Shown here: positions 6,177 through 27,860 of the stretch, one piece after another
Position numbering within the stretch: the first letter of the stretch is position 1
How the letters are laid out: each line of letters starts with the position of its first letter
Source of the DNA: Escherichia phage nasanit
Length of the DNA: 39,625 bases
Sequence record: PV245933.1
Direction: 5' to 3' (one strand)
Made by a program: the position numbers and the translations under genes
The notes under the pieces: generated by a model
Databases searched by the model: none
What the model was told of the DNA's origin: nothing
The model's input: the letters and a program-made list of their open reading frames with translations, nothing else

Positions 6177-7274
6177 ATGAACTACACCGACATTCAGGCA
6201 CGTCTGGCAATCATCAAGTCTCTCCCGATTAGTGAACTGGACAAGCGCCAGCCTCTTTTGGTTGCACTGGCTGCTGACATCGTGAACGGTGAAACATGCG
6301 ATGGTGACGATACAAACGGGTCGCAGTGTCTTGAGTATCAGGACTGGTGGAACACCTTGGGCGCTCTCATGCGTGATGCAGGTTTTCGTATGTTGGGTAA
6401 TGGTCATTTTAGTGCGGCCTACTCGCATGAACTGTTACCGGGTCGAGTCGTCAAGGTTGGCTTTAAGAAAGAGGATTCAGGCGCTGCGTACACTGCGTTC
6501 TGTAGGATGCACCAAGGCCGAGCGGGTATCCCTAACGTCTATCACGTAGCACGTCATGCAGGTTGCTATACGGTCGTACTGGACCACTTAAAAAGCTGTG
6601 ACGACGATAATTATGACCATGAGGCATACGCTGACCTCGCACGTTACTTTGTGGAGTCGGATTGCCATGACGCAAGCGACTTTGCACCGGGTGACTACGA
6701 GTTCATCGAGACTTGCAAAATGATTCGTGAGTTCTTCAAAGGGATTGCATCTTTCGACATGCATCGCGGGAACATTATGTTCGACGATAACGATGTTCCG
6801 TACATCACTGACCCGGTTAGTTTCTCACATGACCGTGAACGTGAGGGCGGTTTGCCTCTGGACCCTGAAGAACTGCTGGCTGAGGTCGAGGCTGTAGCGC
6901 AAGAACGCATGATTGAACGTTGCCGCAACCGCAAGGCCAAGTGTGACCCTAACGGCTCCTTTCAGGTTAACCGCAAGGCCGCAATGAAACGCCGCAAGCG
7001 TAACCGTAAGTTACGTGCTAAACATGCAGCGGAAGGAATGCACCAGTTTGTCAAAGGGCGGCTTGAGCGTAGAGCTATTGACCGAAATGAACGCCGTGCT
7101 GAGATGTTTATGGGGTCTGCATGGCATTACGCATGGTTGCATAATGGTAACGCAACGTTCCGCAAGGTTGAACAAGTGAACGGCCTCAAGTGGCAACTAG
7201 GGGACCGCCTAGCAATCCAAGCGGGTCTCCCTTTGAACATCGACAAGTTACTTGACGCACAACTGAAAGGCTGA
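6177..7274 (+). CDS. 0.7: Ser/Thr protein kinase and host transcription shut-off protein, gp0.7
   Basis: 365 aa; N-terminal kinase region with MLGNGHFSAAYSH, KVGFKKEDSGAAYTAFCRM, FDMHRGNIMF; Arg/Lys-rich C-terminal domain as in T7 gp0.7. Confidence 0.9.
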   Translation: MNYTDIQARLAIIKSLPISELDKRQPLLVALAADIVNGETCDGDDTNGSQCLEYQDWWNTLGALMRDAGFRMLGNGHFSAAYSHELLPGRVVKVGFKKEDSGAAYTAFCRMHQGRAGIPNVYHVARHAGCYTVVLDHLKSCDDDNYDHEAYADLARYFVESDCHDASDFAPGDYEFIETCKMIREFFKGIASFDMHRGNIMFDDNDVPYITDPVSFSHDREREGGLPLDPEELLAEVEAVAQERMIERCRNRKAKCDPNGSFQVNRKAAMKRRKRNRKLRAKHAAEGMHQFVKGRLERRAIDRNERRAEMFMGSAWHYAWLHNGNATFRKVEQVNGLKWQLGDRLAIQAGLPLNIDKLLDAQLKG

Positions 7275-24913: not shown

Positions 24914-25825
24914 ATGGCTGGTGAATCTAACGCTGACGTATACGCATCTTTTGGTGTGAACTCTGCGGTTGTCGGTGGGTCTACTCCTACTGACCACGAA
25001 CAGGCTATGCTTGAACTCGACGTTGCTGCCCGTGATGGTGATGACGCAATTGAGTTAGTAAGTAACGATGACCCGTATGGTAATCCAGACCCGTTCGGTG
25101 AAGAAGACGAAGACCGCACTGAGATTCGTATCTCCACTGATGGTGAACCTGAAGTAACCGAAGAAGGTGAAATCGACTATGAAGGAACCGAAGATGAAGG
25201 CTCCGAAGAGTTTGAACCAGTTGGTGACGTTCCAGATGAACTGAACGAAGCCTCAAGTCAACTCGAAGAGCACGAAGCTGGTTTCGAAGAGATGGTCAAT
25301 CAGGCTGCTGAACGTGGTCTGTCTGAAGAAACCATCGTGCGTATCCAACAGGAATACGGAGAGGACGGTCTGTCTGAAGAGTCTTACGAAGAGTTAGCCA
25401 AAGCTGGTTACTCCAAGTCGTTTGTTGACTCCTACATCCGTGGTCAGGAAGCACTGGTAGAACAGTATGTTCAGTCCGTTATGGAGTACGCTGGCGGTGG
25501 AGCACAGTTCCAAGCAATCTACAATCACCTCGAAGTGTCCAACCCGGATGCTGCCGAGTCTCTGATTAGTGCCTTGGAGAATCGTGACCTCGCAACAGTT
25601 AAGGCTATCGTTAATCTCGCTGGTGCAAGCCGTGAGAAGACTTTCGGTAAACCTGCTGCCCGTAGCATTTCTAAACGTGCCGTACCTGCTGCACCTGTAC
25701 GAGCCAAACAGTCTGGCTTTGAGTCACAGGCTGAGATGATTGCTGCAATGTCCGACCCTCGCTACCGTTCGGACTCTAAGTTCCGTGCTGAAGTTGAGCG
25801 TAAGATGATGTACAGTAACTTCTAA
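24914..25825 (+). CDS. 9: Capsid assembly (scaffolding) protein, gp9
   Basis: 303 aa, highly acidic, T7 gp9 pattern. Confidence 0.93.
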   Translation: MAGESNADVYASFGVNSAVVGGSTPTDHEQAMLELDVAARDGDDAIELVSNDDPYGNPDPFGEEDEDRTEIRISTDGEPEVTEEGEIDYEGTEDEGSEEFEPVGDVPDELNEASSQLEEHEAGFEEMVNQAAERGLSEETIVRIQQEYGEDGLSEESYEELAKAGYSKSFVDSYIRGQEALVEQYVQSVMEYAGGGAQFQAIYNHLEVSNPDAAESLISALENRDLATVKAIVNLAGASREKTFGKPAARSISKRAVPAAPVRAKQSGFESQAEMIAAMSDPRYRSDSKFRAEVERKMMYSNF

Positions 25826-25828
25826 AAT

Positions 25829-25851
25829 TAATACGACTCACTATTGGGAGA
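25829..25851 (+). promoter_or_regulatory. Phage RNAP promoter (phi10 position), consensus copy
   Basis: TAATACGACTCACTATTGGGAGA. Confidence 0.85.
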
Positions 25852-26020
25852 GAGATGGAATCCCACGATTGGAGGTCACACAGACCATTAAGTTGCTGTG
25901 ACATCTGGCTTCCGGGCTTGTCGTGGGAATGCTCCCTTTGAGTGATACACAATGAGAACCAACTCGTTTCAAGTAGTACCTCACACATTTAAACTTTAAA
26001 TTAACAGAAGGAGATTCAAC
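25852..26020 (+). promoter_or_regulatory. Long structured 5' leader of the major capsid gene, with epsilon-like translational enhancer
   Basis: About 170 nt between transcription start and ATG; nested inverted repeats (CCCACGA/TCGTGGG, GTCACA(CA)G/CTGTGAC, GGGAG/CTCCC); TTTAAACTTTAAATTAACAGAAGGAGA before the ATG. Confidence 0.5.
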
Positions 26021-27064
26021 ATGGCTAAGATGAATGGTGGTCAGCAAATTGGTAAAGACCAAGGTAAAGGTATGTCTGCTGGTGATAAACTGGCTCTGTT
26101 CCTGAAAGTGTTCGGTGGTGAAGTTCTGACAGCGTTTACTCGTACCTCTGTTACCATGAACAAACACCTCGTGCGTTCCATTCAGTCCGGTAAGTCCGCG
26201 CAGTTCCCTGTGCTGGGTCGTACCAAAGCTGCTTACCTGCAACCGGGTGAGAACCTCGATGACAAACGTAAAGACATGAAGCACACTGAGCGTACCATTA
26301 ACATTGATGGTCTGCTGACTGCTGACGTTCTGATTTACGACATCGAAGACGCAATGAACCACTATGACGTGCGCTCCGAGTATACCGCACAGTTGGGTGA
26401 ATCTCTTGCGATGGCTGCTGATGGCGCGGTTCTGGCTGAAATGGCTAAACTGTGTAACCTGCCGTCTGCGTCTGATGAGAACATCGCTGGTCTCGGTAAG
26501 GCTCATGTACTGGAAGTTGGCAAGCAGTCTGAGCTTCGGGGAGACCAAGTTAAGCTGGGTCAGGCTATCATCGCACAGTTAACTCTGGCTCGTGCCAAGC
26601 TGACTGGCAACTATGTTCCGGCTGCTGACCGTGTGTTCTACACCACTCCAGACAACTACTCTGCTATTCTGGCTGCTCTGATGCCTAACGCTGCAAACTA
26701 TCAGGCTCTGATTGACCCGTCTACTGGCTCTATCCGCAACGTTATGGGCTTCGAAGTTATTGAGGTTCCGCATCTGACTGCTGGTGGTGCTGGCGAAGAC
26801 CGTCCAGAAGAGGGTGCAAATCCGACTGGTCAGAAACATGCGTTCCCTGAGACTTCCTCTGGTGACACCCGTGTTGCTCTGGACAACGTTGTCGGTCTGT
26901 TCAATCACCGCTCTGCCGTTGGTACTGTTAAGCTGAAAGATATGGCACTGGAACGTGCTCGTCGAGCTAACTTCCAAGCAGACCAGATTATCGCTAAGTA
27001 CGCTATGGGTCACGGTGGTCTGCGCCCTGAAGCATGTGGTGCGCTGGTTTTCAACAAGTCTTAA
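26021..27064 (+). CDS. 10: Major capsid protein, gp10A
   Basis: 347 aa; T7 gp10A pattern (T7 is 345 aa). Confidence 0.97.
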   Translation: MAKMNGGQQIGKDQGKGMSAGDKLALFLKVFGGEVLTAFTRTSVTMNKHLVRSIQSGKSAQFPVLGRTKAAYLQPGENLDDKRKDMKHTERTINIDGLLTADVLIYDIEDAMNHYDVRSEYTAQLGESLAMAADGAVLAEMAKLCNLPSASDENIAGLGKAHVLEVGKQSELRGDQVKLGQAIIAQLTLARAKLTGNYVPAADRVFYTTPDNYSAILAALMPNAANYQALIDPSTGSIRNVMGFEVIEVPHLTAGGAGEDRPEEGANPTGQKHAFPETSSGDTRVALDNVVGLFNHRSAVGTVKLKDMALERARRANFQADQIIAKYAMGHGGLRPEACGALVFNKS

Positions 27065-27198
27065 CTTCTCGCAAACTCGTAGGGGACACTGAGTCCCTTA
27101 CTGAAGTTGAGCAAGAGCTAACGCCACAACAGAAAGCTGCCCGTACCCGTGCGGCAAACAAGGCTCGAAAGGAAGCTGAGCTAGCTGCTACTGAATGA
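26021..27198 (+). CDS. 10: Minor capsid protein gp10B by -1 ribosomal frameshift near 27046-27052
   Basis: G GTT TTC slippery sequence just before the 10A stop; the -1 frame stays open for 48 further codons to TGA at 27196-27198. Confidence 0.55.
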
Positions 27199-27209
27199 TA
27201 ACTATATGA

Positions 27210-27248
27210 AACCCCTTGGGTGCCTTCACGGGTGCTTGAGGGGTTTTT
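27210..27248 (+). terminator. Intrinsic terminator (T-phi position)
   Basis: AACCCCTTGGGTGCCTTCACGGGTGCTTGAGGGGTTTTTT; GC-rich hairpin plus U-tract, very similar to T7 T-phi. Confidence 0.8.
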
Positions 27249-27269
27249 TCGCTACAAGGAGACACACTT

Positions 27270-27860
27270 ATGCGTTCCTATGAAACAACCCTAGAGACAG
27301 GTGAAGAGTTGGCTGCTGTCAATGACATCTTGGCCTCTATCGGTGAACCACCAGTATCTACTCTGGAGGGTGACTCTAACGCCGATGTTGCCAACGCCCG
27401 TCGAGTTCTCAATAAGATTAACCGACAGATTCAGTCTAAGGGCTGGACGTTCAACATTGAGGAAGGTCAACAGTTGGTCCCCGATGTGTTCAACGGTCTG
27501 ATTCCATATATGTCAGACTACCTGTCTGTGCTCTCTCAAGGTGGTGCGACTGCTTACGTCAACCGTGGTGGTTACGTCTTTGACAGGACCACTGGCACCG
27601 ATGTGTTCCAGAACCCTATCACAGTGACCATCATCAAACTGAGAGAGTTCTATGAGATGCCTGAATGCTTCCGCTACTGGATTGTCACCAAGGCCGCTCG
27701 ACAGTTCAACAACCGATTCTTTGGTGCACCTGAGATTGATGCTGTGCTGGCTGAAGAAGAACAAGAAGCGAAGATGCAGTGTCATGAGTACGAACTGGAC
27801 TTCGGTAACTTCAACATGCTTGATGGTGATGCCTTCACTGGTGGTCTACTGTCTCGTTAA
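27270..27860 (+). CDS. 11: Tail tubular protein A, gp11
   Basis: 196 aa (same as T7 gp11); AAGGAGA SD. Confidence 0.93.

Follow-up and report, generated by a model that had tools for sequence, protein, structure and literature searches.

Does the major capsid gene of Escherichia phage nasanit yield a single protein, or do some ribosomes change frame close to its stop codon and extend the product, as in T7, and if so, what makes them shift? The DNA analysed was the whole of sequence record PV245933.1, 39,625 nucleotides read on one strand and referred to here as the window. An initial annotation had proposed a programmed -1 frameshift at this place, giving a capsid protein with a C-terminal extension. 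Judged by its sequence, the window comes from a Berlinvirus (T7-like; Autographiviridae, Studiervirinae) and represents a distinct isolate of this known genus. Capsid-region identities are 99% with Enterobacter phage vB_SEqdws-315 and with Escherichia phage 285P, 96% with Kluyvera phage Kvp1 and 94% with BA14, each of which is a Berlinvirus. Over its first 25 kb the best deposited records show around 93-95% identity and none matches exactly; since no deposited record goes beyond about 95% in that region, we regard the window as a separate isolate.

The features of the locus are collected in Table 1. The gene 10 mRNA would be driven from the phi10 promoter, whose homologous 23-mer carries the annotation 'promoter phi10' in BA14 and Kvp1. 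The fold of the gene 10 leader was unremarkable (z = -0.95), and an Rfam scan of positions 25800-27400, with E values up to 1, matched no family. Gene 10A has the Shine-Dalgarno sequence GAAGGAG at 26007-26013. Its product matches the Pfam family PF21703 (Gp10A-like; 4e-107, residues 61-343) and the T7 10A structure 2xvr in the PDB (1e-166), and these matches identify the gene that hosts the slip site as that of a Gp10A-like, HK97-fold major capsid protein. At the other end of the locus, a terminator of the T-phi kind was said to lie just past the extension, and this is where we found it: it starts ten bases beyond the TGA of the -1 frame, with CCCC at 27212-27215 and GGGG followed by a U-run at 27240-27249, and its homologous counterparts in BA14, Yepe2, T7 and T3 carry terminator annotations.

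Table 1. Positions of the gene 10 elements in the window.
Feature	Coordinates	Strand	Details
T7-type late promoter phi10 (TAATACGACTCACTATTGGGAGA)	25829..25851	+	+1 at 25846
Gene 10A, major capsid protein	26021..27064	+	347 aa, 37,103 Da (37.1 kDa); stop TAA 27062-27064
Slippery heptamer G GUU UUC (0 frame Val343-Phe344)	27046..27052	+	Predicted site of the -1 slip
Predicted -1 frame tail of 10B	27052..27198	+	48 codons (27052-27195), TGA 27196-27198
Two-tier RNA hairpin, candidate proximal frameshift stimulator	27060..27111	+	MFE fold of 62 nt past the heptamer
T-phi-like class I terminator (phage RNA polymerase)	27208..27249	+	18-bp G.U-rich hairpin

The capsid ORF ends, over positions 27041-27064, with GCG CTG GTT TTC AAC AAG TCT TAA, where CTG occupies 27044-27046. 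GTT is codon 343 and starts at 27047 (26021 + 342x3), which places G GTT TTC in the X_XXY_YYZ phase. The slippery site claimed near the end of the ORF can thus be read directly in the sequence, and the 48-codon extension attributed to it proved exact: translation of the -1 frame from 27052 gives QQVLTSRKLVGDTESLTEVEQELTPQQKAARTRAANKARKEAELAATE, 48 codons up to the TGA. The predicted 10B would have 344 + 48 = 392 residues and a mass of 42,051 Da (42.05 kDa), 4.95 kDa more than 10A. Its tail is acidic in the first half and basic in the second and, taken alone, matches phrog_12582, 'head protein' (1.7e-19). Pfam yields a single match on 10B, PF21703, and since this stops at residue 343 the tail is free of Pfam domains. 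All PDB matches stop at about residue 345, so no solved capsid structure includes the tail. The parallel with T7 10A/10B drawn in the initial annotation was borne out as well, the heptamer being identical and set at homologous codons, and the tail homologous.

The bare heptamer is no rarity, as GGTTTTC occurs four times in the window versus 4.9 expected. The other three copies are read GGT TTT C in their genes, and only the one at 27046-27052 is in slippery phase. A -1 frame open for at least 48 codons is found at only 2.8% of the in-frame positions of the genome. What lifts the association of slip site and tail well beyond chance is the coding signature seen in comparisons, along with the conservation of the heptamer's position, both described below.

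Taken together, the data support reading the major capsid gene of this Berlinvirus phage as the site of a T7-type programmed -1 ribosomal frameshift that gives a C-terminally extended minor capsid protein, and we consider this very likely. Most ribosomes would read CUG GUU UUC AAC AAG UCU UAA and release the 347-residue 10A. In a minority, the P-site tRNA-Val (on GUU) and the A-site tRNA-Phe (on UUC) would together slip back one base, to GGU UUU. In such tandem slippage tRNA-Phe (anticodon GAA) re-pairs fully, going from UUC to UUU, while the move of tRNA-Val from GUU to GGU restores only part of its pairing. Decoding would then resume at CAA (27052) and run for 48 codons to the UGA at 27196-27198, and the resulting 10B, of 392 residues and around 5 kDa larger, would co-assemble as a minor capsid component, its tail lying outside. 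The T7 gene 10 site has been classed as a G_GU variant of X_XXY_YYZ and as a case of ribosomal tandem slippage (Atkins review, PMC5009743). With foreign 3' sequence, GGTTTTC shifts less than 1% of ribosomes, versus about 10% in native T7 (PMC1635266). The weak heptamer would probably be boosted by a two-tier hairpin with its base 7 nt downstream, at the mRNA entrance of the ribosome, and the T-phi terminator region some 165 nt downstream may contribute too, as in T7. By analogy, the efficiency of the shift in the window would be expected near the 10% of T7.

Conservation of the heptamer and of the tail was evaluated in 80 related capsid loci from IMG/VR. GGTTTTC is kept at the homologous position throughout the Berlinvirus and Teseptimavirus lineages of this set. 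Most tail-bearing relatives have the identical heptamer 16 nt before the stop, as in T7, and most tailless relatives carry synonymous non-slippery variants, e.g. GGTCTTC or GGTGTTC. Crossing GGTTTTC with a -1 frame open for at least 30 codons gave 29/30 versus 28/45 (Fisher P = 6e-4, non-redundant loci). Other slip sites, read-through into gene 11 and shared ancestry all confound this contingency, so that it deserves little weight.

The tail itself is more informative. The window reads LTPQQKAARTRAANKARKEAELAA where T7 reads LTPAQEAARTRAANKARKEAELAA, and the homologous block shared with T7 is LTPxQKAARTRAANKARKEAELAA. Across 28 unique tails, the codons of the segment LTPxQKAARTRAANKA, taken in the -1 frame, vary at the third position in all 16 cases, at the first in 6/16 and at the second in 2/16. 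Such variation, nearly confined to third positions, indicates that the block is translated in the -1 frame and under purifying selection across genera.

The slip site admits some variation around this tail. Relatives exist that have a T7-type tail with A GUU UUC or C GUU UUC, which implies that the match in the P site is not critical. ETEP21B has G GUU UUU, and in BA14 UUC is replaced by UUA AAA AAG (G GUU UUA AAA AAG), which places A_AAA_AAG in phase. The tail of Yep-phi is cut by a nonsense codon after 19 tail residues, and that of Yepe2 carries a 1-nt insertion near its end; other relatives have Ig-like tails and many have no tail. In these comparisons the 10B tail appears evolutionarily labile, yet the relatives that do have it conserve its C-terminal block strongly.

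The minimum free energy fold of the RNA beyond the heptamer starts after a spacer of 7 nt. Its lower stem pairs 27060-27068 (CUUAACUUC, which includes the UAA stop of 10A) with 27103-27111 (GAAGUUGAG); an internal loop of 10 nt (27069-27078) separates it from an upper stem in which 27079-27087 pairs with 27093-27101, closed by the apical loop ACUGA (27088-27092). Compared with dinucleotide shuffles this segment has z = -3.8, the lowest of 94 segments tiled over gene 10. In an alignment of 15 distinct Berlinvirus/Helsettvirus sequences 98.2% of the cells of the pairing are paired, with four two-sided changes, a result that none of 500 shuffles matched. The stems are held while the loops vary.

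The four two-sided changes are confined to the Helsettvirus fPS phages, a single lineage in which fPS-9 and fPS-89 are identical over the hairpin segment. With 27 of 77 positions changed relative to the window, this lineage still keeps 19/19 pairs and the shape, and the peptide encoded over the hairpin differs as well (LGADSTLAPD versus LVGDTESLTE in the window). The chance of keeping all the fPS pairs was estimated as P = 1.7e-4 under random substitution at the same columns, and as P = 0.009 when the observed new bases were permuted among those columns. In other lineages analogous hairpins of different sequence start 3-5 nt past the heptamer, each with the 10A stop in its 5' arm. The hairpin of fPS-59 (L018 in our set) has z = -4.0, with 0/81 of the upstream gene 10 segments at or below that value; the corresponding figures were z = -2.8 and 0/80 for locus L021, z = -2.5 and 4/80 for T7, and z = -1.7 and 1/80 for locus L079. 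The equivalent stem of T7 is GGAGUAAUGC...GUGUUACUUC, and in the T7 lineage the covariation consists only of one-sided changes from G.U to G-C and does not beat the shuffle control.

From these alignments, 27060-27111 is well supported as a conserved RNA structure. That it acts as a frameshift stimulator is about an even call, and only tentatively would we regard it as the principal proximal stimulator, hitherto undescribed, of gene 10 frameshifting of the T7 type, a role that is possible but somewhat short of probable. The alternative with most to be said for it accepts the frameshift and gives the hairpin some other function, in mRNA stability or processing or in modulating termination at the UAA it contains, and leaves stimulation to the distal terminator only. 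In T7, the CCCC of the terminator, more than 200 nt downstream, contributes to frameshift efficiency by an unexplained route and is the only 3' element documented in the literature consulted (PMC5009743); in the window the equivalent CCCC lies 165 nt from the heptamer. The lack of significant covariation in the T7 lineage points the same way, and so do the GGTTTTC loci with Ig-like tails, which have no comparable hairpin (z ~0), so that not every gene 10 frameshift goes with such a structure. Against this, -1 stimulators canonically sit at such a distance (7 nt) from the slip site, no other segment of gene 10 is as structured in the window, fPS-59 or L021 and few others are in T7 and L079, and the stems are kept while loops and encoded peptide change. 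Stimulation by the distal terminator alone also sits poorly with the GGGG partner for its CCCC, which is not universal among the tails. We give this alternative a substantial chance, if less than an even one. Should the hairpin prove to be the main stimulator, it would help to explain why the heptamer alone shifts less than 1% and would give a context to the long-unexplained distal effect of the T7 terminator.

Three other candidate elements were considered and discarded. A pseudoknot formed through the apical loop of the hairpin was set aside, the loop varying freely in the alignment (ACUGA, GCUGA, AAUGA, AAGGA, AUUGA, UCUAC). A conserved long-range pairing between a G-run close to the slip site and the terminator CCCC was not supported either, as GGGG is present within 45 nt in only 34/43 unique tails and its position drifts. 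As for an upstream Shine-Dalgarno-like stimulator, the window offers only a GGUG that arises from Gly-Ala codons and is not conserved (locus L032 has GGCGC). A literature search with the heptamer string returned primers and miRNAs only.

Direct evidence at the protein level comes from a close relative. SDS-PAGE of Kvp1 virions revealed a band of 43.6 kDa that ran above the major capsid protein, its tryptic MALDI peptides at m/z 2244.123, 2372.219 and 2692.310 covered Gp10B residues 327-372, and a programmed -1 frameshift was concluded (Lingohr et al. 2008, PMC2579914). Our recomputed masses agree with all three reported values: 2244.124 for LVGDTESLTEVEQELTPQQK (residues 353-372), 2372.219 for KLVGDTESLTEVEQELTPQQK (residues 352-372) and 2692.308 for the junction peptide YAMGHGGLRPEACGALVFQQGLTSR (residues 327-351), the last one within 0.002 Da under two assumed modifications, carbamidomethyl-Cys and oxidised Met. 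If these modifications hold, the junction mass makes Phe344 the last residue read in the 0 frame and Gln the first one in the -1 frame, that is, ...VF|QQ..., as expected for slippage on G GUU UUC. The Kvp1 heptamer is identical to that of the window, and the tails differ by one residue, at tail position 3, which is Val in the window and Gly in Kvp1. The stretch from heptamer to terminator differs by only a few substitutions between the window and 285P, and the tail peptide of 285P is that of Kvp1. It is likely, by comparison with these relatives, that nasanit itself makes 10B; its predicted junction peptide, YAMGHGGLRPEACGALVFQQVLTSR, would have MH+ 2661.339, or 2718.360 with carbamidomethyl-Cys, and its predicted tail peptide LVGDTESLTEVEQELTPQQK MH+ 2244.124.

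A gene 10 frameshift of this type is already known, being a textbook case in T7, demonstrated in Kvp1 by mass spectrometry and annotated in several close relatives. In GenBank, the Kvp1 10B entry reads 'results from ribosomal frameshifting' and that of BA14 'may be translated via slippery sequence', BSP161 is entered as 10A/10B, and BP12A has a 'potential frame slippage site'.

The slip site could also be an inherited relic, with shifting at background level (below 1%) and a tail without a role. T7 10B is reportedly non-essential in the laboratory, according to what is said of Condron's 1991 work and of the T7Select literature, and the nonsense codon of Yep-phi, the insertion of Yepe2 and the many tailless relatives indicate that the tail is dispensable in evolution. 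The heptamer by itself does shift at that low level (PMC1635266). On the other side, the window is separated by few substitutions from 285P, whose tail peptide is the one of Kvp1, where 10B is a visible band in virions; the tail frame is uninterrupted, with purifying selection across genera on its conserved block; and compensatory changes maintain the hairpin downstream. With a tail intact and apparently selected, and with such a hairpin, we judge a relic unlikely, and clearly so.

Less probable still is a separate small gene formed by the 54-codon ORF at 27034-27198 and read from an ATG of its own. It is annotated in this manner in GenBank, as gp10b in 285P, gp10B in Yepe2 and 'capsid and scaffold protein' in vB_SEqdws-315, and there is indeed an ATG at 27034. 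This ATG, however, is a by-product of the 10A codons GCA TGT and has no usable Shine-Dalgarno sequence, the nearest GGTGG being 15 nt upstream. Relatives of the T7 lineage share the tail yet lack any start codon in its frame ahead of the heptamer, and the junction peptide of Kvp1 runs from 10A sequence across the junction and into the tail, which speaks against a separate product. Transcriptional slippage of the phage RNA polymerase on the T-run, in which loss of a U from the mRNA could in principle give a -1 shift, has nothing specific in its favour and is scarcely credible, as the run counts only four T's and known slippage-prone homopolymers are far longer. Reviews of T7 mutagenesis also class the T7 site as ribosomal tandem slippage (PMC5009743).

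Programmed ribosomal frameshifting remains the preferred reading. Its practical consequence is for annotation: gene 10 needs a joined 10B CDS (26021..27052, 27052..27198) and not a separate small ORF named 'capsid and scaffold protein'. For phage engineering, the 10B tail would be a natural display site on T7-like capsids. The frameshift itself brings nothing new biologically, and the conserved proximal hairpin is a modest new lead on how a weak heptamer may gain useful efficiency on bacterial ribosomes.

As regards known systems, the likeness to E. coli dnaX concerns the mechanism only, i.e. a tandem -1 slip on the bacterial ribosome with a downstream hairpin at around 6-7 nt. The dnaX cassette consists of A AAA AAG, a Shine-Dalgarno sequence some 10 nt upstream and a stem-loop 6 nt downstream; the window has a downstream stem-loop but another heptamer and no convincing upstream Shine-Dalgarno-like element, the genes are unrelated, and the expected efficiency is about 10% here versus 50% in dnaX. 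T3 and phiYeO3-12 share a -1 frameshift near the end of the homologous capsid gene and a surface-exposed C-terminal extension, but they slip at CCC AAA G, on Lys codons, and their tail is unrelated, an 85-aa Ig-like domain. Ig-like tails similar to that of T3, in loci L053 and L060, match Pfam Big_2. These T3-type features are absent from the window, with no CCCAAAG at the end of gene 10A and no Pfam domain in the tail.

T7 is much closer. Its gene 10 frameshift is said to go back to Dunn and Studier in 1983 and to Condron, Atkins and Gesteland in 1991, with 10A reportedly of 344/345 and 10B of 397/398 residues. T7 10A ends with GCA GTG GTT TTC AAA GTG GAG TAA, and the T7 RefSeq record carries 10B as a joined CDS. 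The larger capsid species has been shown in T7 virions (literature cited in PMC5009743 and PMC1635266). Window and T7 have in common G GUU UUC, set on homologous Val-Phe codons and followed by the stop of 10A after 16 nt, the C-terminal tail block (LTPAQ.AARTRAANKARKEAELAA), a T-phi terminator with CCCC soon after the 10B stop, and the capsid fold. They differ in the tail, of 53 codons in T7 versus 48 in the window, with first halves unrelated in sequence; in the capsid proteins, about 77% identical; in the distance from heptamer to terminator, 185 nt in T7 versus 165 nt in the window; and in the proximal hairpin, which in the window has another sequence and a tighter two-tier shape. The closest systems are Kvp1 and the Berlinvirus records 285P, BSP161, S523, FE44 and BA14: their 10A ends in NKA where that of the window ends in NKS, but they share with it the genus and the heptamer, and their hairpin and terminator are essentially the same.

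Tail type and slip site were found in mosaic combinations across the capsid loci related to the window (L015, L024, L026, L060-L065, L069 and L082, together with the T3-type loci L006, L020, L025 and L027). The GGTTTTC heptamer occurs both with the basic tail of T7 type and with Ig-like (Big_2) tails, and the latter are also paired with CCCAAAG, the slip site of T3 type. A strong hairpin following the heptamer is absent from the GGTTTTC loci with Ig-like tails. Two of the loci compared, L042 and L071, inflate naive "-1 ORF length" statistics. Three more copies of GGTTTTC are present in the window, at 6381, 17734 and 19279, but all of them are read by their genes as GGT TTT C, and they were discarded as frameshift sites because they are not in the slippery phase.

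The slip site itself varies in close relatives. In BA14 (L001, 1546-1558), G GUU UUA AAA AAG replaces G GUU UUC AAC AAG, so that the Phe slip site is changed and, two codons further on, an A_AAA_AAG heptamer of the dnaX type is in phase; apparently the slip site has turned over while the tail has stayed the same. The heptamer of ETEP21B (L228, 217-223) is G GUU UUU, which allows perfect re-pairing in the A site, while tail and hairpin are otherwise unchanged. In the GenBank record of this phage the tail has an entry of its own, a "putative minor capsid protein" whose start lies 3' of the 10A stop. The 10B tail seems to be in decay among the Yersinia pestis Berlinviruses: in Yep-phi (L011, about 2290) a GAG to TAG change cuts it to 19 residues, and Yepe2 (L004, 1482-1610) has a 1-nt insertion close to the tail end and has lost the usual 10A stop, resulting in a 10A of 353 aa.

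Much longer -1 frames were identified in two metagenome contigs, where the capsid gene ends in ...CTG GTT TTT ACT... and the -1 frame remains open for around 395 codons.

Long -1 frames at the capsid gene end of metagenome contigs
Feature	Position	Source
L053 long -1 frame	about 1248-2450	IMG/VR metagenome T7-like contig
L068 long -1 frame	about 964-2170	IMG/VR metagenome T7-like contig

A Big_2 Ig-like domain (Pfam, 5e-11) is encoded in this frame, and the roughly 310 aa after it gave no match in Pfam or PDB. By eye, the latter part contains GDS(L)...GTNN...DGTHS motifs resembling SGNH-hydrolase blocks. If translated by frameshifting, the extension would place a large, possibly enzymatic domain at the capsid surface.

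With respect to the regions flanking gene 10, the leader (25852-26020) is about 69 nt longer than those of Kvp1 and 285P, a feature shared with BA14; structure prediction shows nothing out of the ordinary for this leader (z = -0.95). The 43-codon reverse-strand "hypothetical protein" annotated in this leader in vB_SEqdws-315 is probably spurious. On the other side, no phage promoter was found between the terminator and gene 11 (27250-27270), whereas a phi11 promoter is annotated at this location in Kvp1 and T3. Expression of gene 11 (27270-27860) would thus need read-through of the terminator, which is the arrangement of T7.
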